This document shows positions 2,354-22,964 of a stretch of 25,479 nt of DNA, piece by piece. Under the pieces are notes generated by a model, which was not told where the DNA came from, made no database searches, and was given only the letters and a program-made list of their open reading frames with translations. Positions within the stretch are counted from its first letter, which is position 1. The number at the start of each line of letters is the position of its first letter. This stretch comes from an archaeon (GTDB lineage: Archaea; SpSt-1190; DYHY01), in contig JAZDJS010000047.1 of NCBI GenBank assembly GCA_043803745.1, positions 1 to 25,479 of the forward strand, given 5' to 3'. A program made the translations under genes and the position numbers.

Positions 2354-3412
2354 ATGCTGTTCTCCCCAACAACCTTTGCAATTGGCGCAATACTGAAAAT
2401 TTTCGTCCTTCTTGCCCCGCTTGCAGCAAGCGTCCTGCTTTCCTGGCGGTATGATTCGGTTTCCGAGAAAAAAAAGGGCCGCATCCTTTTCTTCGGTTTC
2501 TCCATATTTCTCGTTCTTCACTTGATTTTCCTTGATGCGGTTATGTTCCGCGAAATTGACTCGCCAATGCCCGCAGAATTCAAAAGCCCGATTGAGCTGA
2601 TTTTCTCCTATCTTTTCCTCCTTGCGGCAGTTGCCGCCCTATATTTCTGGTCCTCGACGCTTGAAAACCGGCTTTTCGGACAGCCCCTTTTCAACAGGCA
2701 TTTTCTCGTGCTTATCCTCGCTTCCGGAGCGGGCGCCCTTGTTTTCGCAAGCCAGTTCGGGAGCTTACCGATTGAAACGGTCTCGAGCTCCGCCCTCTAT
2801 ACAGTTTCCTGGATTCTTGTCCCAGCGATTTACGTTTCCCTTTACAACATATATTCAAAGTTCAAGACGAAATTCTCCAAGCTCGTCCTGCTTGGCGCCC
2901 TTGTGAGCGTTTCAAACCCGGTAATTTTCACATTCGCCGTCAAGTCCTGTTTCCAGGCGGGCGCCCTTTCATTTGACACTTTCTATTCCCTTCGGGGAGT
3001 CGCAATGGCGGTTTCAGTTGTCGGGGCCGCCCTTGCAAGCGTCCCCGCGTTTTCTTTCCTCAAAGACCTTCTTATGCAAATTGAAGACCTCCGCATCCAG
3101 CAGAAATCGGTTTTCTCGAGATTTGTCCACGAATTCGTTTTCAGATATTCCAGGATAATCGGAAAGGTGAGCTGGACGATTTACGAAAGCGCTCTTGCGG
3201 ATTTCGGGAAAGCCCCCGATTGGGAACTGGATTCCCTCCCGGAAGCAAAGAAGCGCGATTTCCTGGGCGCCGCATTTTCCAAATACCTTTCCCTGACCGG
3301 GCTCATTTCCAAAAGAATCTGCTGGGATGCATTCTCCTCCTCAGCGGAATTCAGGAAAAATCGGCCTGTCAACGCAGCCGTCCTTGCGTTCACTGAGCGG
3401 AAATATCAGTAA
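2354..3412 (+). CDS. Seven-transmembrane membrane protein with a C-terminal cytoplasmic helical domain (putative sensor)
   Basis: Seven hydrophobic segments in about aa 8-236. The soluble ~110-aa tail contains YSRIIGKVSWTI and YLSLTGLISKRI, similar to the 4988..5338 protein. Confidence 0.75.
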   Translation: MLFSPTTFAIGAILKIFVLLAPLAASVLLSWRYDSVSEKKKGRILFFGFSIFLVLHLIFLDAVMFREIDSPMPAEFKSPIELIFSYLFLLAAVAALYFWSSTLENRLFGQPLFNRHFLVLILASGAGALVFASQFGSLPIETVSSSALYTVSWILVPAIYVSLYNIYSKFKTKFSKLVLLGALVSVSNPVIFTFAVKSCFQAGALSFDTFYSLRGVAMAVSVVGAALASVPAFSFLKDLLMQIEDLRIQQKSVFSRFVHEFVFRYSRIIGKVSWTIYESALADFGKAPDWELDSLPEAKKRDFLGAAFSKYLSLTGLISKRICWDAFSSSAEFRKNRPVNAAVLAFTERKYQ

Positions 3413-4775
3413 TTTCCATCCCTGGCTTGTGCTTGTCAAGCACCGCCTGCCGCTCTTCCGGGGAATACTGCCTTAGGTCAAGCTTAAGCTCGAACGCAGT
3501 CACCTCGCCCCCGCCAATTTGCAGGAACGCATTAACCGGGGCGTTCTCAGGAATCCCGTATCTGTCGCTTCCGGCTGTCGAGTATTCTACGAACCGCCTG
3601 TAGATTCCGGTCCGCTCCTCCGGAGAAAGCTCCCGGGTTGTCTCAAGGGTTGCGCTTATTGCGCGCGGCACGCCCCCTTCAGTTTCATGGCGCGCAGTCC
3701 CTAGTCCCGTCAGAATGTCCGGGAAATCCGAGGCAAGGGCCGCTTTCACATCCTGGAAGAATTTTGCGGGGTAGTGTTTTATCGGTTCGTCAGCTTTCCT
3801 GCCGACAATCTCGATTCTTGGGGAAACGCGTTCCCCGCACGGGCAGGAATAGTCAAAAGTCCCAACATCCCCGGTTTCGCAATTGAGAGCTGCATATTCC
3901 GCAGGCTTCAGATGGCTCATAACAATTTCGCCGGTTCCTTCGTCAAGGAAAGCCCGCTTTATCGTGCTCAGATGGTTGTGCCCGAGGGTGCAAGGAGTCG
4001 TCCAGATTCCGTGCTCAATCGAGTTTATCGCGTTAATAACTGGAATCCCGAGTTCTTCCTCCAGGAATTCCTTGTCAGCCGCAGGCAGCGCGCTTCCACC
4101 CATGTAAATTCCCCGGAGCTTACTCCCGCCCCCGGCAATGAGCTTGCGCGCGTCAGGATGCCTGAGGAAAGCGGGTCCGACCATTGTGTAAGTGAAAATG
4201 AATTCAGCTTCCGGAAGGATTCGCATGAAAGCGCCGAAATCGTAAGTGTCAAGCCAGCTTGCGTCGGCAAGCCCATAGAGCTTGCAAAGCATCGGGATCA
4301 GCCCCTTCAAGGAGCTTTTTTCCGGGACAAGGACAGTCATCTTGTCCTTGCGGCCGATTCCCAGGGCGTCAAAATAGACGTCCATTGCCCTTGCTTCGCT
4401 CCCAAGGTTGAGAATTGAGAACGGCCTCTCCTTTTGGGTTCCCGTTGTCCCGCTTGTGTGCGCGGATTTCAAGAGGAATTTCGGTATGTTTTTCCTGGTC
4501 AGGCCGGGCATCCGTTCCCGCAAGTCATCCTCAGTTACCCTGAATCCGGACGAATCAAGCTCGGCAAAGGAACTTATCTGCCGCGGGTCGGTTACTCCTA
4601 GCGCCCGGAGTTTTTCCGGAACGAGGTCGGTTGTTCGCCAGTAGAGCGGGAGCACATTTCTCAAAGCAGCATCCTGCGCAGCTTCCAGTTCCTCAGCGGT
4701 TCCGTACGGGAATCGCGGCGCTGAAAATGCGAATCCCTTTTCCAATTTTTCCGGCTTTGAATCTCTTTTCACCAT
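3390..4775 (-). CDS. Phenylacetate-CoA ligase / coenzyme F390 synthetase-like adenylate-forming enzyme
   Basis: ANL-family motifs: HTSGTTG P-loop, YMGGSAL, and ETGDVG...CPCG...IEIVGRKAD hinge. It overlaps the 7TM gene convergently by 23 bp. Confidence 0.8.
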   Translation of the reverse strand: MVKRDSKPEKLEKGFAFSAPRFPYGTAEELEAAQDAALRNVLPLYWRTTDLVPEKLRALGVTDPRQISSFAELDSSGFRVTEDDLRERMPGLTRKNIPKFLLKSAHTSGTTGTQKERPFSILNLGSEARAMDVYFDALGIGRKDKMTVLVPEKSSLKGLIPMLCKLYGLADASWLDTYDFGAFMRILPEAEFIFTYTMVGPAFLRHPDARKLIAGGGSKLRGIYMGGSALPAADKEFLEEELGIPVINAINSIEHGIWTTPCTLGHNHLSTIKRAFLDEGTGEIVMSHLKPAEYAALNCETGDVGTFDYSCPCGERVSPRIEIVGRKADEPIKHYPAKFFQDVKAALASDFPDILTGLGTARHETEGGVPRAISATLETTRELSPEERTGIYRRFVEYSTAGSDRYGIPENAPVNAFLQIGGGEVTAFELKLDLRQYSPEERQAVLDKHKPGMEITDISAQ

Positions 4776-4945
4776 TTCGCCTCAAAAACCCCTTTGTTTC
4801 CGGAAGAAAATTCCAAGAATATAAATATTTCCGACAAAAAATCAGTAATTTTTACGAAATCTGAGTGGGAAACTTAGCTCCCTCCGAAGGAATTGCGAAA
4901 GCCCGGTAAAAAAAAGGAAAGTTCTAGCGGGAACTGAAGGCAAAT

Positions 4946-4963
4946 AGAAAGAAACTTTAAATA
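4946..4963 (+). promoter_or_regulatory. BRE/TATA promoter of the Roadblock-GTPase-KaiC operon
   Basis: Purine run followed by TTTAAATA (4956-4963), about 25 nt before the ATG at 4988, consistent with a leaderless transcript. Confidence 0.55.
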
Positions 4964-4987
4964 CACTGGAGAAAGTAACTGGAACTG

Positions 4988-5338
4988 ATGGCAGTTTCCC
5001 CTGAGGGCAGGAAAGCGTTCTATGATTCGGTCTGCGCCGAAATTGTCAAGGAAGTCGCGAGGATGATAGGCACCACTGCGAACACGCTTGCGGGAACGGT
5101 CCAAGGGATAATACTCAAGAAGGAATCGTTATCGACGTCCGACGCCTTCGGCCCGAAGAACCTTGAGGAACTGGTCAACGTTTACGTCAAGATAATAGGG
5201 CCGGTTGCCAAGACGCTTGCGGGCCGGGCTGTCGTGCGCGTCAAGGAAGTTGGCGAGGATGAGGAACGTGCGGAGCTCCTCCCGAACTGGCTTGCCGAAA
5301 GCGTCAAGGCCCTTTCCGGGTCTGAAGGAGCGCATTGA
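4988..5338 (+). CDS. Small alpha-helical protein (possibly NitrOD5-like signalling domain)
   Basis: First gene of a tightly packed operon. It has an internal repeat, VARMIGTTANTLA / YVKIIGPVAKTLA. The family assignment is from memory and unverified. Confidence 0.65.
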   Translation: MAVSPEGRKAFYDSVCAEIVKEVARMIGTTANTLAGTVQGIILKKESLSTSDAFGPKNLEELVNVYVKIIGPVAKTLAGRAVVRVKEVGEDEERAELLPNWLAESVKALSGSEGAH

Positions 5339-5341
5339 ACG

Positions 5342-5752
5342 ATGGCGGAAGAACCCGGCGGGAACAACTCCCCGGAAAGCATCGAGGGGAAACTCGAACA
5401 TCTCCTTTCCTTCCTTGAAACTCTTCCGGAAATACATGCAACAGCCGTAGTGAGGCGAGACGGTTTGATGATAGCGTCCTCACTGCCGAAGACGGTCGAT
5501 TCCCGAACTTTCGCGGCAATGTCCGCGGCAATTGTCGGGACCGCTGAAACCTCCGCCACCGAATTGCAGCTCGGGCGCTTCCTCCAAGTGATTGTCGAGG
5601 CTGAGAAGGGGAAAATGATTGCAACGGGAGCCGGAAGCGTCGCGATTCTCATCTGTCTTGTCACTGAACGGGCCAACCTCGGGCTGGTCCTCCTTGAAAT
5701 GGGTAGGGTTGCCCGCCAGGTTGCCGATACCCTGGAGGGCTCCGCGGAATGA
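5342..5752 (+). CDS. Roadblock/LC7 (MglB-like) protein 1
   Basis: Motifs AVVRRDGLMIASSLP, AAMSAAIVGTAE, QVIVEAEKGKMI and NLGLVLLEM are typical of Roadblock proteins. Confidence 0.92.
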   Translation: MAEEPGGNNSPESIEGKLEHLLSFLETLPEIHATAVVRRDGLMIASSLPKTVDSRTFAAMSAAIVGTAETSATELQLGRFLQVIVEAEKGKMIATGAGSVAILICLVTERANLGLVLLEMGRVARQVADTLEGSAE

Positions 5753-6894
5753 GCCCCGCCCTGAAAACGGGAATCCCGAAGCTTGACGAACTCCTTCTCG
5801 GGGGAATTCCGGAAGGCGCAGCAGTGCTGATAACCGGGCTCCTCGGCGCGGACATCGAGACATTCGGGCAGCAGATTGCGTCGAAAACCTGCGAAAGCGC
5901 GCAGTGCCTTTATTTCGTTTCTGACAAGATGCCCTCCCTCGTCAGGGAAAGAATGGGCGCCCTCAAGTTCCCCTCGACCGACAAGCTCCATTTCGTTGAC
6001 GGATATTCCGCTTCAATCGGCATGTCGACAATTGAAGAATTCCATACAAAGAAATCCGGCGAGATCGAAGGGGTAATTTCCGAGGCGGCGAAGAAAGTCT
6101 TCCCGAAGCTCCTTGTATTCGACTCGCTTTCATCCAGCAATTTTGCGAACGGAAAGTCCTTTTGCGAAAGGGTAACCGACCTGAGCAGGCTTGCAAAATC
6201 TTTCGGGGCTGTGGCGGTTTTCCTCTTCCCGCGGCTTGGCGAGGAGGACGAGGCCTTTGCGAAGGAGCTTTCGAAATCTTTCGAGGAAACGATTTCCATC
6301 GATTCCGTCGCAGAGAACTTCATTGAGCGGAGCTTCTACACCGTTTCGACAAAGGGAGAAATCCATGTCCCGTTCAAGGTCACCGCAAGCGGAATCTCCC
6401 TTTACGTCCCGAAGATAATCGTCACCGGTCCATACCATTCCGGAAAATCGACGTTCATACACAAGATTTCGACAAAGGCGATTTCAGTCGACCGCCTCGG
6501 GACAACGGTCGCTCTCGACCATGGCTGCGTTGAATACAAGGGCTTCTCAGTCGACCTTTTCGGGACCCCCGGTCAGGAGGCGTTCAATTTCATCCTTCCG
6601 ATAATCTCGAGGGACACCTTCGGAGTGATACTGATAGTTGATTCGAGCGACAGGAACTCGTTTCCCCGCGCAAGGGAGATGATCGACCTCGTCTCCGGCG
6701 GACGGATTCCCTTCGTCGTTGCCGCGAACAAGAGCGACCTTCCCGGGGTCCTCGTTCCCGATGAGATACGGGCGCTGCTCACGCTCGGGACGAACGTTCC
6801 AATAATCAAGACGGTTTCGACAACAGGGGAAGGGATTTTCGAGACCCTTGTCGCGCTTTTCGACATAATAACGGGATTCCGGAGGTGGAACTGA
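5749..6894 (+). CDS. KaiC/RAD55-like domain (degenerate Walker A) fused to an MglA/CvnD-like small GTPase
   Basis: N-terminal KTGIPKLDELLLGGIPEG and LVFDSLS, with Walker A read as GLLGADIE. C-terminal G1 GPYHSGKST, G2 TTVALD, G3 FGTPGQ and G4 NKSD. Confidence 0.9.
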   Translation: MSPALKTGIPKLDELLLGGIPEGAAVLITGLLGADIETFGQQIASKTCESAQCLYFVSDKMPSLVRERMGALKFPSTDKLHFVDGYSASIGMSTIEEFHTKKSGEIEGVISEAAKKVFPKLLVFDSLSSSNFANGKSFCERVTDLSRLAKSFGAVAVFLFPRLGEEDEAFAKELSKSFEETISIDSVAENFIERSFYTVSTKGEIHVPFKVTASGISLYVPKIIVTGPYHSGKSTFIHKISTKAISVDRLGTTVALDHGCVEYKGFSVDLFGTPGQEAFNFILPIISRDTFGVILIVDSSDRNSFPRAREMIDLVSGGRIPFVVAANKSDLPGVLVPDEIRALLTLGTNVPIIKTVSTTGEGIFETLVALFDIITGFRRWN

Positions 6895-7274
6895 AGAACA
6901 TGGGACTGGATGAAAAACAATCCGAACTTGAGACAATACTTGCCCGGCTCGCCGAGTTCCCTGACATTTTGGGGTCGGCAATAGTGAGGAAGGACGGGCT
7001 GATGATAACTTCCTCCCTTTCCGGGAAGCTTGATTCGCGCGCAATTGCCGCAATGGCTGCCGCGATAGTCGGGACCGCGGAAACCTCGGCATCCGAGCTC
7101 GGGCTCGGGAAATTCCCGCAGGTGATTGTCGAGGCTGAGAAGGGGAAGCTGATCGCAACCGGAGCAGGAACCCAAGCGCTCCTTGTCTGCATGGTGCGGG
7201 CAACGGGAAACCTCGGGCTAGTCCTCCTTGAGATGGGGCGCGCTTCGGAAAAGATTTCAAACAAGCTGGAGTGA
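6885..7274 (+). CDS. Roadblock/LC7 (MglB-like) protein 2 (start may be the ATG at 6900)
   Basis: Motifs AIVRKDGLMITSSL, AAMAAAIVGTAE and NLGLVLLEM. It is a close paralog of 5342..5752. Confidence 0.92.
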   Translation: MELKNMGLDEKQSELETILARLAEFPDILGSAIVRKDGLMITSSLSGKLDSRAIAAMAAAIVGTAETSASELGLGKFPQVIVEAEKGKLIATGAGTQALLVCMVRATGNLGLVLLEMGRASEKISNKLE

Positions 7275-7283
7275 GGGACCAAA

Positions 7284-7970
7284 GTGCCGCTGAAAACGCT
7301 GATGACGAAGATTGACGAGCTTCTCGGAGGCGGACTTCCGGAAAAAAGCACCTTCCTCCTCAAGGGACCCCCCGCTTCAAAGAAGGAGTCGATACTCTTC
7401 CAGTTCCTTCACGCCGGAAAGAAATCCGGAAATCCGATAGCATTTGTTGCAACCGACTCATCTCCCGCCGAAATCGAGAAGCGCGCCATTTCCCTCGGGC
7501 TCGACCTCTCCTCGACGAAGTTCGTCGACTGCTATTCCTGGGCGCTCCAGCAGAGGAGTTCAAGCAGGCCCGGAGACATAATTGTCCCCGGACCCTCTTC
7601 CCTCAACGAGCTTTCAATTGCAATCTCAAGGGCCCTTTCCGAAATCAACAAGCCGGGGGTCCCCTCACGGGTTTCCTTCCAGTCCCTTTCAACCCTCGTC
7701 CTCTACAACAATCCCGACATAGTCTTCCGGTTCATCCAGATAATGGGGGCCCGCCTCAAGGCTTCCGGGGCAACGACCCTCTTCTCAATTGAAGAGGGGA
7801 TGCACGAGGAGCGGGTTTTCACAACGCTCGAGCATATTACCGACGGGACAATCGAGTTCAAGTCCGAGAACGGGGCGGACTTTTTGAGGATCCCCCGGCT
7901 TCCGGCAGGCAAGCCGATTTCCAACTGGATCCAGTTCGAGGCAACCCCTTACGGAATCGAGATAAAATAG
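7284..7970 (+). CDS. Single-domain KaiC/RAD55-like protein, probably catalytically inactive
   Basis: Motifs IDELLGGGLPEK, FVDCYS, SLNELSIAI and EGMHEE...LEHITDGTIEF. Walker A is GPPASKKE and Walker B is VSFQSLS (D to Q). Confidence 0.88.
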   Translation: MPLKTLMTKIDELLGGGLPEKSTFLLKGPPASKKESILFQFLHAGKKSGNPIAFVATDSSPAEIEKRAISLGLDLSSTKFVDCYSWALQQRSSSRPGDIIVPGPSSLNELSIAISRALSEINKPGVPSRVSFQSLSTLVLYNNPDIVFRFIQIMGARLKASGATTLFSIEEGMHEERVFTTLEHITDGTIEFKSENGADFLRIPRLPAGKPISNWIQFEATPYGIEIK

Positions 7971-8081
7971 GGCTTCAGGCTTCGCTTTACAACTCATCGG
8001 CTTTCGGCACAGAAATGAAATGACCTCTTTTTCGGAGTTAAACCTGGCAAAGGATATAAACCGCTGCCAACTCCGGAAGGA

Positions 8082-8921
8082 ATGGCAGGGCAAATTCTCC
8101 CAGAGGTTGCGAGAGAGCTCCATGAAACGCTTGGAAAGATATACAGCCGGATTTTCGGCGGGCCTTCTCTAGGCGATGTTCTCAGGCGAGACGCTTATCT
8201 TGGGGACTTTTTGGGAAGGCCCGACGAGGCAATCAACTTTGCCCGCGGAAGCCTTGCCACGACAACTTTAGCCCATTCAGCCGATTACAAGGAGGGGATT
8301 GTAAGGTTTCCCTGGCTGCCCGGGGACGGAGGTGTCGGAGAGGATTTGCTCCGAAGGGAGATTCTCGCAGCCCAGGATTCGCCGGACGGAAATTACACCG
8401 TTGTCCTTGAAGTCGCAGCAGAGCTGCCGGAGAGCCGGCTTGAAAAAGGGGATGCCCGAAACGGGTTCAATCAGAGAATTTTTCCAGCTGCACGCAAATA
8501 TGGCGATGCCTTTGAGAAACTCGGCTACAGGCCGGTTGCGCTCTATTTCATTGCAGATGAAATGGATACGATGGATTTTTCAACGGTCTATGACCGGGCT
8601 TTCTTCGGGCTCCTTGGTGCCACAAGCAGCGCCGTAAAGGTTGACGACCATACGCTCCGCGGCGAAGCAATTCCAAGGAAGCTAAAAGCCACCGCTGGAA
8701 TCAGCACGGGAGTTTTCGGAAGCGATGGCAAGAGCTCCGGATGGTTCAACCGCTTCGAAGGGAGGCCGTATGCCAAGTTCGACATAACCGACTTGGCAGG
8801 ACCTGAGACAACCCAAAGAAGGGTTCTTGACGCTTTTCTAAAAGCCGCTTACTTGGGAACGACAACTACTCCGGCTCGCGGCCAAAGCTGCGGCTTGGGC
8901 GATTGCGGCATTGAAGGCTGA
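8082..8921 (+). CDS. Hypothetical protein
   Basis: 279-aa ORF with a TATA-like GATATAAA at about 8053-8060. No motif recognised. Confidence 0.6.
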   Translation: MAGQILPEVARELHETLGKIYSRIFGGPSLGDVLRRDAYLGDFLGRPDEAINFARGSLATTTLAHSADYKEGIVRFPWLPGDGGVGEDLLRREILAAQDSPDGNYTVVLEVAAELPESRLEKGDARNGFNQRIFPAARKYGDAFEKLGYRPVALYFIADEMDTMDFSTVYDRAFFGLLGATSSAVKVDDHTLRGEAIPRKLKATAGISTGVFGSDGKSSGWFNRFEGRPYAKFDITDLAGPETTQRRVLDAFLKAAYLGTTTTPARGQSCGLGDCGIEG

Positions 8922-8939
8922 GTTGCAGAGGCAGTCTCC

Positions 8940-9230
8940 ATAAACCAAGTCTTCTCCGGCCGAATCCGGCTGAGCTAGGCCGAGGTTTAGGCGAGGCTCG
9001 GCATCTCCGAGCACGACGCAAAGTCGATATTCGGCGAAATGATTCCAGTTCCCGCCGAATATCGGAAAGCCGCTCCCTCCGCTCGGTTATATGCCGGCAG
9101 GAGAGAAGGTTATAGTTCATCCCGGGCGGCTAGGGGAGAAAAATGGCTGGCAATCCCGGTCAAGTATCCCCCCGCCAAATACCCGGTCTCCGGATCCTGT
9201 CCGGGAACCTTTTTCCCAAGGGGTTCCGCC
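8940..9230. ncRNA. Candidate structured non-coding RNA or element
   Basis: Perfect 12-bp stem CGATATTCGGCG/CGCCGAATATCG (9025-9036/9053-9064) and hairpin GCTCGG/CCGAGC (8996-9012). Possible long closing helix 8940-8960 with 9093-9113, and further stems at 9121-9227. No convincing ORF. Confidence 0.4.
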
Positions 9231-9334: not shown

Positions 9335-10600
9335 ATGGCGAAAACCGCCCAAATCATCCAAAAAATTCTCTCCAAGATAAACCCCTCCCCGAAGGAACGG
9401 AAAGCGGTTGGCGCGATTGTCGAGGAGGCAATGAAAATCTGCAGGAAAACCGCGAAGAATTCGGAGATAGTCCTCTGCGGCTCCTTTGCAAAGGACACCT
9501 ATCTTTCGGGGATACGGGACGTCGACATTTTCCTCGTTGCCCGGGAGGGGAGGACCGCAGAAACGGACTGTCTTGCCGATGCGGAAGCCTGCGCCAAGGC
9601 ACTTTCCCCGAAAGGCTATGAACGGAAGTTCTCATCCCACAAATATTTCACTGCCGACTTCAAGGGATACAAGTTCGACCTTGTGCCGGCATACCCCTTC
9701 AAGCCTGGGGAAGCCCTCCGCTCGTCGGTTGACCGGACCCCTCTCCATGCCGAATACATCAACGGAAACCTTTCCGACAAGGCGGTCGCCAGGCTGATGA
9801 AAGCGTTCTGCAGGGGAGTCGGGGTTTACGGGGCTGATGCGAAAAACCAGGGCTTTTCAGGATATTTGTGCGAGCTTATCGCCGCAAAAGAGGGGACCTT
9901 CGAGCAGATTCTCAAAAGCTCGGCAGGAATGAAGCATCCCCTTGAAATCCCCGACCCGGTCGACTCGGAAAGGAACGTTGCCTCGGCGGTTTCCGAGGAT
10001 TCCCTGGAGAGGTTCAAGCGCTCCGCAAAAGCGTTCCTTTCGAAACCCTCGGAGCTTTTTTTCTTCCAGGGAAAGGTCCCGGCGAAGGTCCCCGCCCTTA
10101 ATTCGAAAAAGCAGATTTCCCTGATTTACAAGGAAACATTCGAAGCCGAGGACGCCCTCTACTCAAAGGCTCGCAGCAACCTTGCCCAAATTGTCAAGGA
10201 TGTTTCCGACATTGGCTTCTCGGTGAAGCGCTCGGGCTTTGCAGCAAGCCCCGCAAGCGGGGAGGTTCTCTTCATCCTTGAATTCGACAAGATGTTTCTC
10301 CCGAGAACGCGGATTGTCGAGGGTCCCCCGCTGAGCGTCCGGCGCGACTACATTGACGCATTCGTTTCAAAGCACGGAAAGGAAAAGGTCTACCAGAAGA
10401 AGGGCCGGCTTTATGCAAAGGAGGACCGGAAGATTTTCGAGGCAAGGCAGGCGGTTCTTGCAATGGGAAGGACCTTCCTCCCGACCTTTGCCCTTGTCGA
10501 GAGCCAAAAGGCGCTTTCCGCAATTTTCAGGGAGCTTCCCGACGGGGAAAAACGGAGACTTTGCTCGTTCCTCCTGAAGCGGGAAGTCTGGCAGGTCTGA
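9335..10600 (+). CDS. cca: CCA tRNA nucleotidyltransferase (archaeal class I)
   Basis: Motifs GSFAKDTYLSGIRDVDIF, VDRTPLH, GVYGAD...GFSGYLCEL and DPVDSERNVASAVS. Confidence 0.95.
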   Translation: MAKTAQIIQKILSKINPSPKERKAVGAIVEEAMKICRKTAKNSEIVLCGSFAKDTYLSGIRDVDIFLVAREGRTAETDCLADAEACAKALSPKGYERKFSSHKYFTADFKGYKFDLVPAYPFKPGEALRSSVDRTPLHAEYINGNLSDKAVARLMKAFCRGVGVYGADAKNQGFSGYLCELIAAKEGTFEQILKSSAGMKHPLEIPDPVDSERNVASAVSEDSLERFKRSAKAFLSKPSELFFFQGKVPAKVPALNSKKQISLIYKETFEAEDALYSKARSNLAQIVKDVSDIGFSVKRSGFAASPASGEVLFILEFDKMFLPRTRIVEGPPLSVRRDYIDAFVSKHGKEKVYQKKGRLYAKEDRKIFEARQAVLAMGRTFLPTFALVESQKALSAIFRELPDGEKRRLCSFLLKREVWQV

Positions 10601-10607
10601 TTTCCAA

Positions 10608-11495
10608 ATGGCCGGAAAAATAACGTTGACATTTCTCGGGACCGGCTCGACGATCCCTTCTCCCAAGCGGGCTCACCCGGCAATTGTCCTTTCCACACTC
10701 GGGGAGAACCTCCTTTTCGACTGCGGCGAGGGAACGCAGGTCAAGCTCCAGGAAGCCGGGATAAATCCGATGAGGATATCGCGGATTTTCATAACCCATT
10801 TCCATCCGGACCATTTTCTCGGGTTGCCCGGGCTCGTTTCCTCCCTTGAGCTTTGCGGACGGACCGAGCCCCTTGAAATTTTCTCGCCGAAGGGCGCGGC
10901 GGGGAAGCTGAGTGCGCTTGTCAAGCTCTGCAACGGCGGACGGCTCCCTAAATACCTGATAGACTTCCGGAAAGTCCCCCTCAGCAGCAAGCCAATTGAG
11001 ATTTCCAGGGGAGACCGGCAGTCCATCTTCTCCTGCAAGACAAGCCACCACATCCCGGCGGTCGGATATTCCTTCGTCGAGAGGGATAGCTTCCACCTAA
11101 TTCCGGAGAAACTTCCGGAGAAGCTCAAGAAGCCGAAAGCCCTTCCAAAAATAAAGCCCGAGAAAAACCCGGAATATTTCTCCGTTGAAAAAGGGCGGAA
11201 GATAACTTACAGCGGGGACACCCGCTTTTCGGAGGGAATTGTCCGGCTTGCGGAAGGCTCCGACATCCTGATACACGAGGCGACGTTCCCCTGCGACAAG
11301 TCGGAGAAGGCGAAGGAATACTGCCACTCGACCCCCGAAACGGCCGCCCAGGTTGCGCTCAAGGCCCGGGCGAAAAAGCTGATCCTCACCCATTTCAGCA
11401 GGCGGATTTCCGACATCAAGGAGCAGGAAGCTGCAGCGAGAAAGCTCTTCCCGGAAACCTTCTGCGCAGAGGACCTTCAGGTTTTCGAGCTCTGA
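10608..11495 (+). CDS. rnz: Ribonuclease Z
   Basis: Motifs FLGTGSTIP, LFDCGEGTQ, THFHPDH, YSGDT, LIHEAT, HST and LTHFSRR. Confidence 0.95.
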   Translation: MAGKITLTFLGTGSTIPSPKRAHPAIVLSTLGENLLFDCGEGTQVKLQEAGINPMRISRIFITHFHPDHFLGLPGLVSSLELCGRTEPLEIFSPKGAAGKLSALVKLCNGGRLPKYLIDFRKVPLSSKPIEISRGDRQSIFSCKTSHHIPAVGYSFVERDSFHLIPEKLPEKLKKPKALPKIKPEKNPEYFSVEKGRKITYSGDTRFSEGIVRLAEGSDILIHEATFPCDKSEKAKEYCHSTPETAAQVALKARAKKLILTHFSRRISDIKEQEAAARKLFPETFCAEDLQVFEL

Positions 11496-12115
11496 CTAGA
11501 GATTTCCCGATTGAATTCGGCAACAATCCGCTTTATCCGTTCGACCGAAGCCGGAAGCGTTTCAGGCACTTTCAGGCAGGGGTATTTGACTTCAAGGACG
11601 AGGCCCTCTTCAGAGGCCATTGCGACAAGGTCGTATATTGTGCCCGCCTCCTCGAGAATCGGAACCGACGCGCCTTTTTCAAGTCCCAGGGAGATGTTTC
11701 CCGAGTCGTTCACTTGCCGGAGCCCAAGGTTTGCGCGCTCGGCCAGAGAACCGGTTTTCCTATATGCCGCGTCATAGAAAACCCAATCTTCGGGAGATTC
11801 CCCAAACGACTTTTCGCCCCGTCCAACAGGCCATGCGTTGTAAATGTGGACTGTCCAGGGCGCGCATATGCTGGCAACAGCAACTCCCCCGAATTTTGTC
11901 TCAAGGAGATAAGCAAGCTCGCTGCACATGCCCTGCCTCCCGTGCAGGAAGTCCTCCTGGAGCATCCCGTTTCCGCCGAGGAAAAACGAGGGAATATTTA
12001 TTTTCCTGCCCTCCCTTGAGCCATATATCCGGTCATATCTCGAGAAATAGCTTGCGGCAAACCTCAGGTCCTCTTCCCGGACGTATTGGTCGACCTCGCG
12101 GATTATTTTCCGCAT
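11477..12115 (-). CDS. Cys-His-Asp triad (transglutaminase/NAT-like) protein, paralog 3 of a tandem array
   Basis: Motifs ASYFS, GRQGMCSEL, VHIYN and PEDWVFYDA are shared with the two upstream genes. Confidence 0.7.
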   Translation of the reverse strand: MRKIIREVDQYVREEDLRFAASYFSRYDRIYGSREGRKINIPSFFLGGNGMLQEDFLHGRQGMCSELAYLLETKFGGVAVASICAPWTVHIYNAWPVGRGEKSFGESPEDWVFYDAAYRKTGSLAERANLGLRQVNDSGNISLGLEKGASVPILEEAGTIYDLVAMASEEGLVLEVKYPCLKVPETLPASVERIKRIVAEFNREISSQSSKT

Positions 12116-18470: not shown

Positions 18471-19841
18471 CTAAGCAGTTATCCCCTGATGGACTTCGGC
18501 AATGTTGTGCAAACGCCTTGCGGTCGCTTCCGGCCCGAAACGCGATTCAATATGCGCCCTCTGCGCCCCGACCACTTTATCATACTCGGGTTGCGGCATT
18601 TTCAGATATCCCTCAAGCTCAGCCGCAAGCCGGTCGGCGGCTTTACTTGACAGGCCTCCCTTTGTCGAGAGAATTCCGGGCGGATTGCATCGCAGACCGT
18701 CTGAGAGATAGACCAGGCTTTCCAGCCTTTCGGGTGGAAGCTGCTCAGTTGTGCCGTCGCTGACGTAACTTTCTTTCCGTCCACAAATTGCTTCAAATAC
18801 CCAGGAAATCGTCGTGACAGGCATTGTCAGGCCCATCTGGGTTATCGAGCTGTCAAGGGGGTTGGCCCCCTTTCTCAGGTGGATTGCGGCAACCCTGGAT
18901 TCTCCAGACAGGAGTCCGACCGGGAAGGGCCAAATAACTAACTTATCCTCGCAAGCTCTCTGCACATTCTGCCTTCCAAACTGGGGCCTGTAGAGCCGCG
19001 CCTCGCTATCCACTCCATTTAATTCGCCAATGCAACGCTCTCTTTCGTTCTTCATCCTTGAATCGTCTATCTGGGTGGTGTCAAGAGCGGTAACAACCGA
19101 AGCCCCTCTGTCGCGCAAGTTTTTTATTGTTATGTGGTCCGGTGCCGGACCAAAGAAAAGGAAGTTGTAATCACCAACATTCATTCGTTCGAAGACCCCG
19201 TCAATGCAATATCCCTTTGGATCGACAGCGTCTCTGTTCAACCTTCCGTGATGCACTATTGTGGGTCTTCCCGGGTCAAGACCCAGGAGCTCAAGCAAAA
19301 GGGGCTTTCTTCCACTGTACCGGTCTTCCAGTTTTTCCATTTTTTTGACAAGCCAAGGCGCGCAGGGAGTTGAGCCGTAGATGGCGGAATCAATAAGGTT
19401 GTAGAGGGTTCCTTTCGGGAGTGCTAATGCTTTAGAAAAAGAACGCTTAAAGCGACCATATATGCCTGCTGCGTGCGAAACTGAGAGAGGTTCGTCAGAC
19501 CCCATGTTTCCCTGCCAGCTTATCCCCGCGCAATCCGCCGTTTTTGTGATTGCCGTTTTTTCAGTTCCCGCGCAATCCACATAAACGGGGATTTCCCAGC
19601 CGCACTCTCTTGAAAGTGCTCTGCGAAGGGAGAGTATGCTAAGGTCCTCTCCGAGCATTTTTCCATCAAATTGACTGGTCCCAACAACGAAGGCAATCCC
19701 CGGGCGCTCTCTCCTTGCAGGCTCCCGCGTGTCCGGCCAGTCAAAGCCGTATTTTCTGACCAGCTCGGGTTTTGCATCCCATTGTTTGTAACTGTCCGCC
19801 ACGGAAAGGACGGCTCTGTAAGACTTTATAATTTTTACCAC
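18471..19841 (-). CDS. Divergent GT-B (GT4-like) glycosyltransferase paralog A
   Basis: LLGLDPGRPTIVHHGRL...PKGY and RLAAELEGYL...RAHIESRFGPEATARRL resemble the GT4 C-terminal domain. It is homologous to the two downstream genes. Confidence 0.6.
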   Translation of the reverse strand: MVKIIKSYRAVLSVADSYKQWDAKPELVRKYGFDWPDTREPARRERPGIAFVVGTSQFDGKMLGEDLSILSLRRALSRECGWEIPVYVDCAGTEKTAITKTADCAGISWQGNMGSDEPLSVSHAAGIYGRFKRSFSKALALPKGTLYNLIDSAIYGSTPCAPWLVKKMEKLEDRYSGRKPLLLELLGLDPGRPTIVHHGRLNRDAVDPKGYCIDGVFERMNVGDYNFLFFGPAPDHITIKNLRDRGASVVTALDTTQIDDSRMKNERERCIGELNGVDSEARLYRPQFGRQNVQRACEDKLVIWPFPVGLLSGESRVAAIHLRKGANPLDSSITQMGLTMPVTTISWVFEAICGRKESYVSDGTTEQLPPERLESLVYLSDGLRCNPPGILSTKGGLSSKAADRLAAELEGYLKMPQPEYDKVVGAQRAHIESRFGPEATARRLHNIAEVHQGITA

Positions 19842-20200: not shown

Positions 20201-21493
20201 GTGGCAGCCGGAAAACTTCTCAAGAACCTTCCGGAATGGGATTCCCTTCCAGGGCTTGCCGAAATTGCGAACACAACTTTGCTTGACGGGCCCGGATCTT
20301 TGGGAGATGGACGCCTCGAATTCCCCGCTCCGGGCGGCGTTGGCGGATGCATCTATGGCGAGGCACTTGCGGAGCTCCTTGCGATACGGGCTGCCGAGAA
20401 AAACGGAATCCCGGTTTTTTTCTGCCCCGAACCAACGGGCGGATTGAAAATATTCCTTTCCCAATCTGCTACCTGGGGCGCGAATTTCGAGAGCTCGAAC
20501 GACTACGTGCCATTTGCAGTATCTGACGCCCTCGCAACCGCAATCTCCTTCGAGAACGGAAAGCGGCCCGTTCTTGCCCTTCCGAACGTTATCGCAACCG
20601 ACATCTACTCAACAGAGCCGACTGAGGAGGGCGTTCTTCTCCATCAGGACGCTCTCGGAAAAAGCGGAATAGGTTCCTTTCGGGAGCTCTTCGGCCTGCG
20701 GGATAACTCGAAGGTCGTCATAACGCACGGGAGAATGACTTCCGGGTTCCGGAAAACGTACGGTTTTGGGGACGTAATCCTCAAATATCCGGAACTCGGG
20801 GCTGTCGGCGACCTTGATTTCCTATTCTTCGGAAGCAGGCCTGACGAGACAATTGTGTACGTCCTCAGGCAATGCGGATGCCGGGTTGTGAAGCTTCTTG
20901 ACACTGCAAAGCTGACCCTTCCCGAGGCAAACGGGAAAAATAGATTTCTAATTGAGAACAGTTCAGACCCGCGATTCATTGCGGGAGAATACACACCCCT
21001 TCCCGAAAACCACGGACCGATTGTCGCCTGCCCGTTTTCCCTCGGGACAATTGCAAACGAGCTCGGGGCGGTCGGCTATTTTCTTAGGCCGGACCCGGGC
21101 GCTTTCGAGCTTTCCTACGGCGAGATGCTGAGCTCAGGAATTCCCGTTGTCACGAGAATCCACGCGGTCGAGATGGCCGGAAACGGAAAAGAGAAAATCT
21201 CGATTACAGACGGCCAAATGTCCCTGATTCCCCCAGCCGAACGAGGAAGAGCGAAGGTGCTTGAGCAAATGGATGAGAAAACCGCTCGGGAGCTTGCGGG
21301 GGAAATTTACACTTCATTGAACCTTCCAGCTTCCGAACGGGCTTTGCTTGCCGGGCGGCAGGCTTCCTGGATTTCGGAGAACTTCGGCTATGATTCATTC
21401 GCAAGGCGGGCGCGGCGCCTGTTTTACCTTGTGGATTCCGGGGACGTTTCAATCCCCAAACCAACTGGGAACTGTGCGTGCATTACTTATTAG
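20201..21493 (+). CDS. Divergent GT-B (GT4-like) glycosyltransferase paralog B
   Basis: Motifs FRELFGLRDNSKVVITHGRM, PGAFELSYGEMLSSGIPVVT and ELAGEI...WISENFGYDSFARR. Confidence 0.7.
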   Translation: MAAGKLLKNLPEWDSLPGLAEIANTTLLDGPGSLGDGRLEFPAPGGVGGCIYGEALAELLAIRAAEKNGIPVFFCPEPTGGLKIFLSQSATWGANFESSNDYVPFAVSDALATAISFENGKRPVLALPNVIATDIYSTEPTEEGVLLHQDALGKSGIGSFRELFGLRDNSKVVITHGRMTSGFRKTYGFGDVILKYPELGAVGDLDFLFFGSRPDETIVYVLRQCGCRVVKLLDTAKLTLPEANGKNRFLIENSSDPRFIAGEYTPLPENHGPIVACPFSLGTIANELGAVGYFLRPDPGAFELSYGEMLSSGIPVVTRIHAVEMAGNGKEKISITDGQMSLIPPAERGRAKVLEQMDEKTARELAGEIYTSLNLPASERALLAGRQASWISENFGYDSFARRARRLFYLVDSGDVSIPKPTGNCACITY

Positions 21494-21539: not shown

Positions 21540-22964
21540 TTGCAAGATGCCGAAAAAATCCACCGGAGGTTTCGCCAGGTGGTAACCGGCCGTCGGCTTG
21601 AAAACCTCCCTTCCTGGGACGAACTGCCCGGCCTTGTCGAAAGGTTCGGAGTTGACGAGCTCGACCTTCCCGGTGAAATCTACAACGGAGTTTTGAAATG
21701 CGGATTTCCCTCAGAAGGGATTGATGATTGTATTTATGGGGAAAACATTGCGGAACTCCTTGCAATAAGGGCTGCCGCGAAAGGAGGGTTCCAGAACGTA
21801 GAAAGCCGAGAACGCAAGGGAGTTCGGCTCTCCCAAGAGGTTAACTGGGCTGCGAATTTCTTTCCCACCCCCGCATATTTGCCTCTTGCGGTTTCCGACG
21901 GGCTGGCAGTTTCGATTTCACTTGCGAACCCTGGAAAAAGGGTTTTGACCCTTCCGAACGTTATCGCAACCGACATCTATTCCCGCACGCCGGAAGAGCC
22001 GGGCGTTTTGCGGCACCACCAGTCATTTGAGGAGATCGCTACAAAACGGGGACTTTCAGCGCCCTCCTTCAGGGAACTTTTCGGCCTGCGGGATAACTCG
22101 CAGGTCGTCATAACGCACGGGAGGATGGAGGGCAGCTTCCCGAAAACTCACGGGCTTGCCAAAGTAATCGATGCGTATGAGGAACTTGGCGAAGATGCGG
22201 GAAACCTAGATTATCTCTGTTTCGGGACAAGGCCGAACATGGAGACTGCGGAAAGGCTGAGGGCCCGCGGCTCGAGGGTCGTTTTCCTTCTTGACACCGC
22301 AAAGCTCACCCTTCCGGAAACGAAGAGAACTAACGAGAGGATGATACGGGCCAATTCCCGGGCGCGCATTTTGGAGGGAGATTACTCCCCGATAGAACCC
22401 AATCAGAACGAAATTTTCTCTTTTCCCTTCGGGCTCGGAAAGGTTGCGGAGGGACTCGGGGCTGTCGGCTATTTCCTGAGGCCAACTCCAGGAGCTTTTG
22501 AGCTTTCTTACGGGGAAATGTCCTCCGGCTTCCCAGTCGTTACCGCCGTCAACGCGACGAGCGGAAAGGACGGAAGCGGCGAAAAATACTATTTCACTGA
22601 CGGCCAGATGGGCTTGGTATTCCCGGAGGAAAGGCTGAACACGCCAGTCACATATTGCCTTGAACCGGGGGAATGGAAAGCCGGGGTTCCCGAGAGTCCC
22701 GGATTTTTCACACGGGACGCGCTTGCAATTTCCCCCGAACTCGCAAAAGCCCTCGCCCTGCAGATGAAGCGCTTCTTTGAAATGTCCCCTGCCGAAAGGG
22801 ATGCGCACGTCAGGTCAAGTGCGGAATGGATTGGAAGCGAGTTCGGCTATGAGGCCTTTTCCGGAAGGCTGGGCCGCCTGATGCACCTGAATTATTCGGG
22901 TGAGCTCAACACGAACCACACCGCTCCGCCGGTAACTCCTGAGACAATCCAGCTTTATGGCTAG
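21540..22964 (+). CDS. Divergent GT-B (GT4-like) glycosyltransferase paralog C
   Basis: Motifs FRELFGLRDNSQVVITHGRM, PGAFELSYGEMSSGFPVVT and WIGSEFGYEAFSGRL. TATAAA lies at about 21517-21522. Confidence 0.7.
   Translation: MQDAEKIHRRFRQVVTGRRLENLPSWDELPGLVERFGVDELDLPGEIYNGVLKCGFPSEGIDDCIYGENIAELLAIRAAAKGGFQNVESRERKGVRLSQEVNWAANFFPTPAYLPLAVSDGLAVSISLANPGKRVLTLPNVIATDIYSRTPEEPGVLRHHQSFEEIATKRGLSAPSFRELFGLRDNSQVVITHGRMEGSFPKTHGLAKVIDAYEELGEDAGNLDYLCFGTRPNMETAERLRARGSRVVFLLDTAKLTLPETKRTNERMIRANSRARILEGDYSPIEPNQNEIFSFPFGLGKVAEGLGAVGYFLRPTPGAFELSYGEMSSGFPVVTAVNATSGKDGSGEKYYFTDGQMGLVFPEERLNTPVTYCLEPGEWKAGVPESPGFFTRDALAISPELAKALALQMKRFFEMSPAERDAHVRSSAEWIGSEFGYEAFSGRLGRLMHLNYSGELNTNHTAPPVTPETIQLYG

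Follow-up and report, generated by a model that had tools for sequence, protein, structure and literature searches.

A putative GTPase switch built from Roadblock proteins and inactivated KaiC-like domains in an archaeal five-gene operon

The stretch of DNA analysed here, called the window, covers positions 1 to 25,479 of contig JAZDJS010000047.1 (25,479 nucleotides, nt; assembly GCA_043803745.1) from an archaeon of the GTDB lineage SpSt-1190; DYHY01, whose genome (G000) amounts to 1.23 Mb in 51 contigs and is about 90% complete. Seven genes lie between positions 2354 and 7970, all of them open frames at the positions assigned to them in an earlier note on this DNA. Five stand together on the plus strand (4988-7970) and encode, in this order, a helical protein that we call HEL (4988-5338, 116 amino acids, aa, with two '..IIG(P)VA.TLA..' repeats), the Roadblock/LC7 protein RB1 (5342-5752, 136 aa), a fusion of a KaiC-like domain with a small GTPase (5749-6894, 381 aa), a second Roadblock/LC7 protein, RB2 (6885-7274, 129 aa from a GTG), and a stand-alone KaiC-like protein, KCL (7284-7970, 228 aa). 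The junctions measure +3, -4, -10 and +9 nt, that is gaps of 3 and 9 nt and overlaps of 4 and 10 nt, in agreement with the five-gene operon with gaps of 9 nt or less described in the earlier note. RB2 likely starts at the ATG at 6900, as its orthologue in a genome of the same genus does (G001, 94% complete, locus L001), which would turn the fusion/RB2 junction into +5 nt. We consider it fairly probable that this operon is a lineage-specific five-gene GTPase switch made of an inactivated-KaiC-GTPase fusion, a KaiC-like protein and Roadblock proteins, in which HEL would serve as adaptor, the KaiC-like parts as scaffold and the Roadblocks as control. The domain identities, the loss of ATPase motifs, the intact GTPase motifs and the tight linkage over several archaeal phyla can be read directly from the sequences.

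Residues 5-217 of the fusion (nt 5761-6399) match the KaiC model PF06745 at 52.5 bits against a cut-off of 26.6, while residues 222-371 (nt 6412-6861) match small GTPase models of the Arf/Ras kind. The latter domain scored 52.7 bits to TIGR00231 (cut-off 42.5), 43.6 bits to Pfam Arf (cut-off 22.3) and 33.6 bits to Ras (cut-off 21.6). Compared with PDB sequences, the fusion matched Arf1 chains (E 1e-16) and MglA 3t12 (E 7e-15) roughly equally, and its KaiC domain matched KaiC, PH0186 and PH0284. We aligned 19 diverse homologues to inspect the motifs. The G1 P-loop, defined as GxxxxGK[ST], reads GPYHSGKST in the window, and its G227, G232 and K233 are invariant in 19/19, as are R249, T252 and T253 of the switch I region. 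G3 reads FGTPGQ and is invariant from F271 to Q276, with Gly at the canonical Asp position as in MglA-like forms; G4 reads NKSD in the window, with N327, K328 and D330 invariant in all 19. R249 and Q276, which are constant across the fusions, are candidates for the intrinsic catalytic Arg and Gln of MglA-type GTPases. The KaiC domain of the same protein keeps its Walker B (FDSLS) yet lacks a P-loop, and none of the 19 homologues has GK[ST] at the Walker A position.

KCL is recognised by Pfam KaiC (E 4e-20, 72.6 bits against a cut-off of 26.6) and DUF7504 (E 4e-18), and among PDB sequences it matched KaiC, PH0186, PH0284 and RecA. Its Walker A is degenerate in the window (GPPASKKE). In an alignment of 71 orthologues the motif is mostly GPPMSGKE or GPPGxEK (GK-E or EK), while GKT or GKS is retained in a few (L010, L064, L074, L077 and L049). 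Walker B in the window reads FQSLS, without its Asp, a position that Q, N or H occupies in most orthologues. The acidic pair after strand 2 is also replaced, by TTD or TTRE as against SLEE in the active-looking L049. Since both KaiC-like parts have lost their ATPase motifs, the GTPase appears from its motifs to be the only intact NTPase of the operon, and KCL is presumed to be a scaffold partner of the KaiC domain in the fusion. The domain calls of the earlier note (7TM, ANL, two Robl_LC7, KaiC-GTPase fusion and degenerate KaiC-like protein) stand, and beyond them the KaiC domain inside the fusion turns out to be degenerate as well.

Both Roadblock proteins are matched by Pfam Robl_LC7, RB1 with E 3.3e-14 and RB2 with E 6.2e-15, and they are 58% identical. 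In a tree RB1 groups with the orthologues from the same-genus locus and from L002, the locus of the family relative G003, and RB2 groups separately with the orthologue from L001. The two are the sole Roadblock genes in the genome of the window, where the fusion is single copy. RB1 matched the Roadblock chains 7f8m, 9jue and 7yh1 among PDB sequences, along with CvnB5 (3leq, E 2e-8) and, weakly, MglB (E about 0.02); 7yh1 is among the accession codes given in the Asgard paper. RB1 is presumably a GTPase regulator of the MglB/CvnB kind.

The fusion has a wide distribution. A protein search returned 524 homologues of similar length at E<=0.001, and nearly all of the 120 listed combine the KaiC and GTPase Pfam domains. 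A pattern scan over one genome per species gave 540 candidate stretches, 484 of which encode a relative of the fusion. All locus counts out of 80 given here refer to the best 80 of these 484 stretches, which belong to Micrarchaeota, Methanoperedens/ANME-2, Methanocellales, Hydrothermarchaeota, Altiarchaeota, Aenigmatarchaeota, Undinarchaeota and Woesearchaeota, with Methanoperedens in the majority. Tblastn with the window proteins found the fusion in 80 of these loci, KCL in 78, Roadblock in 69, HEL in 3, the ANL enzyme in 1 and the 7TM protein in 0; it should be kept in mind that some of the 78 KCL matches are only the KaiC domain of the fusion itself. Searched with profiles within 3 kb of the fusion, a Roadblock gene was found in 67/80 loci, a stand-alone KCL in 72/80 and both in 63/80, several of the misses being contig ends. 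Of 41 related genomes, 13 carry the fusion, including 4/4 of the family of the window (its own counted).

The order of the genes varies. Methanoperedens and G002, of the same family as the window, have KCL-fusion-Roadblock, other Micrarchaeota have fusion-Roadblock-KCL (in some cases with a further Roadblock) or fusion-KCL-Roadblock, and the window shares HEL-Roadblock-fusion-Roadblock-KCL with two of its three family relatives, G001 and G003. In one locus (L101, G032:C5, 1408-2630, minus strand) the fusion is read as two frames, a 183-aa KaiC-like and a 227-aa GTPase protein, adjoining KCL, which may be either a natural split or a frameshift. A locus of Hydrothermarchaeaceae (L071) carries two fusion genes (8001-9155 and 10797-11954) and two Roadblock genes. 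We suggest from this linkage that the triad of KCL, fusion and Roadblock is a conserved archaeal GTPase switch, with the operon at 4988-7970 as its local five-gene version. The earlier note had looked to conservation of the neighbourhood across archaea, and this was found for the triad, not for the 7TM and ANL genes beside it.

In the Methanoperedens/ANME-2 loci (for instance L058 9849-10298 and L021 9533-9787) KCL, fusion and Roadblock are followed by YhbY/CRM, S19e, dsDNA_bind (PDCD5-like) and CysRS genes. The S19e gene is present in 41/80 loci, all of the Methanosarcinales type save one titled Nanoarchaeia. We rejected a functional link to these translation genes (S19e, YhbY, CysRS), which are limited to Methanoperedens/ANME-type loci and the one Nanoarchaeia-titled locus; being so limited, the linkage looks like synteny by descent. 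No effector conserved across phyla was found near the module in the sampled loci.

HEL resembles no family with a name. Among 33 family members scanned, no Pfam or NCBIfam model matched more than one; there was a single stray Pfam match (DUF6447, E 0.0078), and weak NCBIfam matches to HtpX, seen in 1/33, were set aside as spurious. The HEL profile found nothing under E 0.19 among PDB sequences. An exhaustive HMMER search of 1.84 billion representatives, with three HEL orthologues as query, gave 34 relatives, mostly of 87-124 aa. Five of the 34 hold HEL as a domain within a larger protein: a transmembrane-sensor-transmembrane-HAMP-HEL protein, a multi-transmembrane-HEL protein, a PAS-HisKA-HATPase protein with two HEL domains, a Ser/Thr kinase with four repeats, and a protein of 1560 aa. 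The AlphaFold2 model of HEL, built on a 33-row alignment, has a mean local confidence (pLDDT) of 91 and a predicted template-modelling score (pTM) of 0.82, and consists of helices and one beta hairpin. Foldseek gave no PDB match at E<=0.001, and no DEATH-fold entry was among the matches listed. Similarity to H-NOX/soluble guanylate cyclase chains (template-modelling score by query 0.42-0.47, E>3) was treated as chance. By its sequence, HEL would be the founding member of an unnamed domain family.

HEL accompanies Roadblock and sensor proteins; the evidence points clearly that way, even if its related loci amount to few independent observations. With the HEL profile, HEL-like open reading frames (ORFs) were seen adjoining the module in 8/80 loci, all of DPANN type and mostly directly 3' of a Roadblock gene. 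A metagenome scan seeded with HEL alone, by means of a narrower HEL alignment, gave 15 loci. In 11 of the 15 a Roadblock gene ends a few bases before the HEL start, and the fusion is visible in 9; the four contigs with neither Roadblock nor fusion measure 1.2-1.6 kb. In the longer loci the genes form strings on one strand that run from the fusion through a small protein with three transmembrane segments, a Roadblock, one or more HAMP sensors with two transmembrane segments and each followed by a Roadblock, HEL, a protein with eight transmembrane segments (8TM) and a FIST/multi-PAS protein to KCL. HAMP sensor genes also stand directly 5' of Roadblock genes in related loci, and in L080, which comes from a distant archaeon, a different 7TM-HEL gene lies directly 3' of the fusion and a dCache-HAMP sensor precedes a Roadblock and HEL. 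The earlier note had placed a GTPase/Roadblock switch joined to KaiC-like proteins in a signalling context, and these HAMP, dCache, PAS and FIST sensors in related loci bear that out. Its description of the pathway as kinase-free holds within the window, where no gene scanned carries HisKA or HATPase_c; it does not extend to the HEL family, as HEL is also fused to kinases.

The 8TM family (about 258 aa, with no Pfam match) follows HEL in six loci, one fusion to HEL counted, among them L109, L115, L120, L080 and L123; the copy in L115 (4059-5153) is the one fused to an N-terminal HEL. Distant 8TM homologues are found in the genome of the window on contigs C1, C19, C21 and C33, apart from the module. 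FIST (N and C domains)/multi-PAS proteins within the strings are encoded at L109 7843-9063, L121 3597-4850, L111 6278-7447 and L115 5153-7180, and the PAS genes end right at the KCL start. The genome of the window has a second stand-alone HEL gene (G000:C48:44257-44532, L107 1492-1821; 109 aa, E 8e-15), flanked by a 276-aa ORF with no Pfam match and an MFS transporter, and far from any GTPase.

Upstream of the operon lies the 7TM gene (2354-3412, plus strand, 352 aa), whose product has seven hydrophobic segments in a hydropathy scan and a cytoplasmic tail of about 113 aa (residues 240-352, nt 3071-3409). It matched no Pfam or NCBIfam family, a word-based search of 5.8 billion proteins returned only the protein itself, and its best Atlas feature score, 0.86, is merely a lead. 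Its AlphaFold2 model is poor (pLDDT 60), with seven long helices and two long tail helices at a confidence of 74-90. BLASTP gave no alignment between HEL and the 7TM protein, so that any link between HEL and the tail is visible by profiles only. Run against the 1384 ORFs of the source genome, the HEL profile returned HEL, the window 7TM protein (E 1.2e-4, residues 248-284 and 308-330), a 7TM paralogue (E 1.6e-4) and none else, and it matched the 7TM homologue of G003 with E 1.4e-5. The reciprocal profile of the tail, searched against 8553 ORFs, returned after itself only HEL proteins (E 0.002-0.05). We regard homology of the tail to HEL as likely but not settled. The paralogue (G000:C49:70650-71732, L086 1444-2526, minus strand) is 30% identical to the window 7TM protein (E 1e-31) and has a HEL-like tail too; its neighbours are DUF4202/HD, tRNA_edit and Peptidase_C39 genes, with neither ANL nor GTPase nearby.

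Because its tail is weakly HEL-like, the window 7TM protein is a plausible optional input, and we see it as a candidate, non-obligate receptor. Its role as sensor, proposed in the earlier note, gains from the reciprocal tail match and from the 7TM-HEL gene beside the fusion in L080, and loses in that the gene is not conserved with the operon.

The module might instead be an internal switch without membrane input in this organism, acting for example in polarity, division, surface structures or ribosome/tRNA housekeeping, in which case HEL would be only an accessory co-regulator of the GTPase cycle, in the manner of RomX or MglC, and the two genes for the 7TM and ANL proteins would be unrelated neighbours. 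Most loci, being of the Methanoperedens type, consist of KCL, fusion and Roadblock only, with no sensor gene detected and ribosomal and tRNA genes downstream, and in the lineage of the window a CCA-adding enzyme and RNase Z come after the module. The weakness of the similarity between the 7TM tail and HEL and the remoteness of the second stand-alone HEL gene from any GTPase point the same way. A purely internal accessory is however hard to reconcile with a domain that is fused to HAMP, 7TM, 8TM, histidine-kinase and Ser/Thr-kinase proteins and that stands in strings with HAMP, FIST and PAS sensors, and the S19e/YhbY linkage has the look of shared descent noted above. We think an internal switch unlikely, though it deserves to be kept in mind.

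The remaining gene of the seven, 3390-4775 on the minus strand, encodes a 461-aa protein that is firmly a phenylacetate-CoA-ligase-like enzyme of the adenylate-forming (ANL) class. Pfam AMP-binding scored 21.9 bits, under its cut-off of 29.9. In the Atlas the feature score was 0.97, 23/30 matches fell in AMP-binding clusters, and structural template-modelling scores to phenylacetate-CoA ligase clusters were 0.70-0.72. The sequence also holds TSGTTGTQK, TGD and GRKADEPIK, which we take to be ANL core motifs. The word-based search of 5.8 billion proteins again returned only the query. As the earlier note had it, the gene is divergent from the operon and its 3' end overlaps that of the 7TM gene. 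The overlap measures 23 nt (3390-3412) and the spacer towards the operon 212 nt (4776-4987). The spacer contains a TTTAAATA box at 4957-4964, about 25 nt upstream of the start codon of HEL, and, nearer the ANL gene, an A/T-rich box near 4819-4830; going by the consensus, we presume both to be archaeal TATA boxes.

The earlier note put forward the view that all seven genes form one pathway in which the 7TM protein is a dedicated receptor, the GTPase the switch and the PaaK-like enzyme the maker or activator of a ligand. Adjacency, the divergent arrangement towards the operon and the HEL-like 7TM tail speak for it, as does the position of the 7TM/ANL pair at the same place in G003 (L002). The expected co-occurrence with the operon elsewhere was nevertheless scarcely found: beside the module the ANL gene occurs in 1/80 loci and the 7TM gene in 0/80 by tblastn and 1/80 by blastp, and each is present in 2/41 related genomes, namely the source genome and G003. 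The window, L001 and L002 share flanking genes on either side, and the pair is in the window and L002 and absent from L001, which keeps the operon. In G003 the ANL gene is split over two or three frames and contains one TAG, and the 7TM frame is interrupted as well; these broken frames could be decay or assembly error. The region is syntenic down to the tRNA-processing genes, so that the adjacency in L002 is explained by descent. Scarce co-occurrence, the frame breaks in G003 and a 7TM paralogue without ANL neighbour together indicate that the two genes are no obligate partners of this module, and we found no sign that the ANL enzyme makes a ligand for the pathway. We judge the enzyme to be a neighbour kept by descent and no component of the module, and hold a seven-gene pathway to be very improbable.

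The 7TM and ANL genes might also be a two-gene unit of their own, for instance one that adenylates or acylates a lipid or surface molecule at the membrane. Their 23-nt convergent overlap would fit such a unit, as would their retention together in L002 at about 28% identity, compared with 45-60% for the flanking genes, and their apparent joint decay in G003. Convergent genes cannot share a transcript, on the other hand, the 7TM paralogue lacks an ANL neighbour, the pair did not turn up again in the 41 genomes or the 5.8 billion proteins searched, and the HEL-like tail points to the operon. A separate unit seems to us a poor prospect, if less so than the seven-gene pathway.

Returning to the five-gene switch, we propose the following mechanism. 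The fusion joins an inactivated KaiC/RecA-like domain to an MglA/Arf-like small GTPase, and the stand-alone KaiC-like protein is by its motifs likewise dead in the window and in most relatives. KCL and the N-terminal domain of the fusion may pair into a RecA-type oligomer that serves as a nucleotide-independent scaffold; RecA/KaiC-fold proteins tend to oligomerise, and we infer the pairing because of this known habit and the co-occurrence of the two parts. The Roadblocks, probably as an RB1/RB2 heterodimer, would set the GTP/GDP state of the GTPase as MglB does for MglA. HEL, whether free or carried on a sensor tail, would act as an adaptor or docking domain that joins sensors of the membrane and of the cytoplasm to the Roadblock/GTPase unit. 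We model Roadblock control and HEL docking on the precedents of MglA/MglB and the actinobacterial conservon. Candidate inputs in the source genome would be the two 7TM proteins with HEL-like tails, one 1.6 kb upstream of the operon, at 2354-3412, and one on another contig. Further, we speculate, as a tentative extension, that HEL is a new docking domain which couples receptors of the 7TM, 8TM and HAMP kinds, as well as some kinases, to a small GTPase that is under Roadblock control and sits on a dead-KaiC ring. If true, this would be an archaeal, kinase-independent counterpart of receptor/G-protein signalling, and its parts list of helical adaptor, Roadblock dimers and GTPase would prefigure the eukaryotic Ragulator-Rag layout.

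Several observations weigh against the switch with its adaptor and receptor as we draw it. Of the 41 relatives 13 carry the fusion, and HEL turned up in only 3 of these 13; in the Methanoperedens-type loci, made up of the triad and then housekeeping genes, it went undetected. The loci returned by the HEL-seeded scan belong to one subfamily (34-50% identity) and, being kin, do not count as independent. Similarity between the 7TM tail and HEL is weak, with E 0.0076 in the A3 model and an hhalign probability of 72% (E 3.3e-5, 41 columns), and the three 7TM proteins with a HEL-like tail are themselves homologues. We did not find the 7TM gene in the same-genus genome, 94% complete, although the operon is kept there, and in G003 it is fragmented into separate frames. 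The KaiC-like pairing is drawn from co-occurrence and fold habit, and the binding, GTPase and GAP (GTPase-activating protein) steps are predicted from the genes. Complex prediction of HEL with RB1, RB2 and the full fusion scored 0.08 against a mark of 0.32; run without controls, it is evidence neither way.

Downstream of the operon, a 279-aa ORF (8082-8921, plus strand) starts 111 nt past KCL; it had no Pfam, NCBIfam or PADLOC match and has no counterpart in the syntenic L001 and L002. A CCA-adding enzyme (9335-10600, plus strand) adjoins RNase Z (10608-11495, plus strand), two tRNA 3'-end enzymes that are syntenic 3' of the module in L001 and L002. Three further ORFs of 430-474 aa, at 18471-19841 (minus strand), 20201-21493 and 21540-22964 (both plus strand), had no Pfam match at E<=0.001. 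PADLOC gave no matches among eight window proteins and thus no hint of a known defence system.

Archaea possess few of the classical two-component or kinase pathways, and how they sense their environment is an open question. The module is widespread, with 484 stretches in several phyla, and is retained even in a reduced genome of 1.2 Mb. To our knowledge no member of it has been studied at the bench, and its five soluble proteins and one receptor tail would make a compact test set for Roadblock GAP action in archaea, for the role of inactivated KaiC and for an adaptor linking membrane sensors to a G protein. The answers would bear on the prokaryotic roots of the eukaryotic Roadblock/longin-GTPase platforms. 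A search of the main texts of the available papers gave no description of the fusion, the triad or HEL; comparative-genomics papers may already list parts of it.

Among known systems, MglA/MglB of Myxococcus xanthus and Thermus thermophilus resembles the module in having a Ras-superfamily GTPase gene beside Roadblock/LC7 genes, and the G3 of the module reads xxPGQ, while an Arg and a Thr are conserved in its switch I region. PMC3199381, PMC6785124 and PMC10933270 describe MglB as a GAP, and also a guanine nucleotide exchange factor, for MglA. The module differs in that its GTPase is fused to a dead KaiC-like domain and scores slightly better to Arf1 chains than to MglA, and in that a second KaiC-like gene lies nearby along with two distinct Roadblock paralogues and HEL. 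The survey of single-domain GTPases by Wuichet and Sogaard-Andersen presents archaeal Group 4 MglA as lacking conserved neighbours.

The actinobacterial conservon (CvnA-D; Mfp in mycobacteria) is another relative in design, given in PMC4316618 as a multi-gene locus with a HAMP membrane sensor, a Roadblock, a small protein with no assigned function and an MglA-like GTPase as proposed output. RB1 matches CvnB5 (3leq), and the related loci have a HAMP sensor directly before the Roadblock. Unlike the conservon, the module has no HisKA/HATPase_c on any window gene scanned, belongs to an archaeal host and contains KaiC-like proteins that have no conservon counterpart. No Pfam match ties HEL to CvnC, a DUF742 protein.

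Inactivated KaiC homologues and DEATH-like adaptor domains are reportedly mentioned in the 2017 paper by Makarova, Galperin and Koonin. The module is similar to these inactivated KaiC-like ATPases (iKaiC) in that domains of the KaiC family which have lost their ATPase motifs stand in connection with signalling domains; the term iKaiC, and the proposal of archaeal signalling hubs, are taken here as quoted in PMC5847659. Ragulator-Rag, for which PMC10933270 describes Roadblock heterodimers held by the small helical LAMTOR1 as a membrane platform for GTPases, compares by analogy only: the window operon too encodes a small helical protein and a GTPase together with two Roadblock paralogues. HEL however has a beta hairpin and a compact predicted fold, LAMTOR1 is not among its listed structural matches, and the GTPase of the module carries no Roadblock domain of its own. 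Judged by its genes, the module appears to share the GTPase-Roadblock logic of MglA/MglB and the conservon, without the kinase and CvnC of the latter, and to add to it two dead KaiC parts and HEL.

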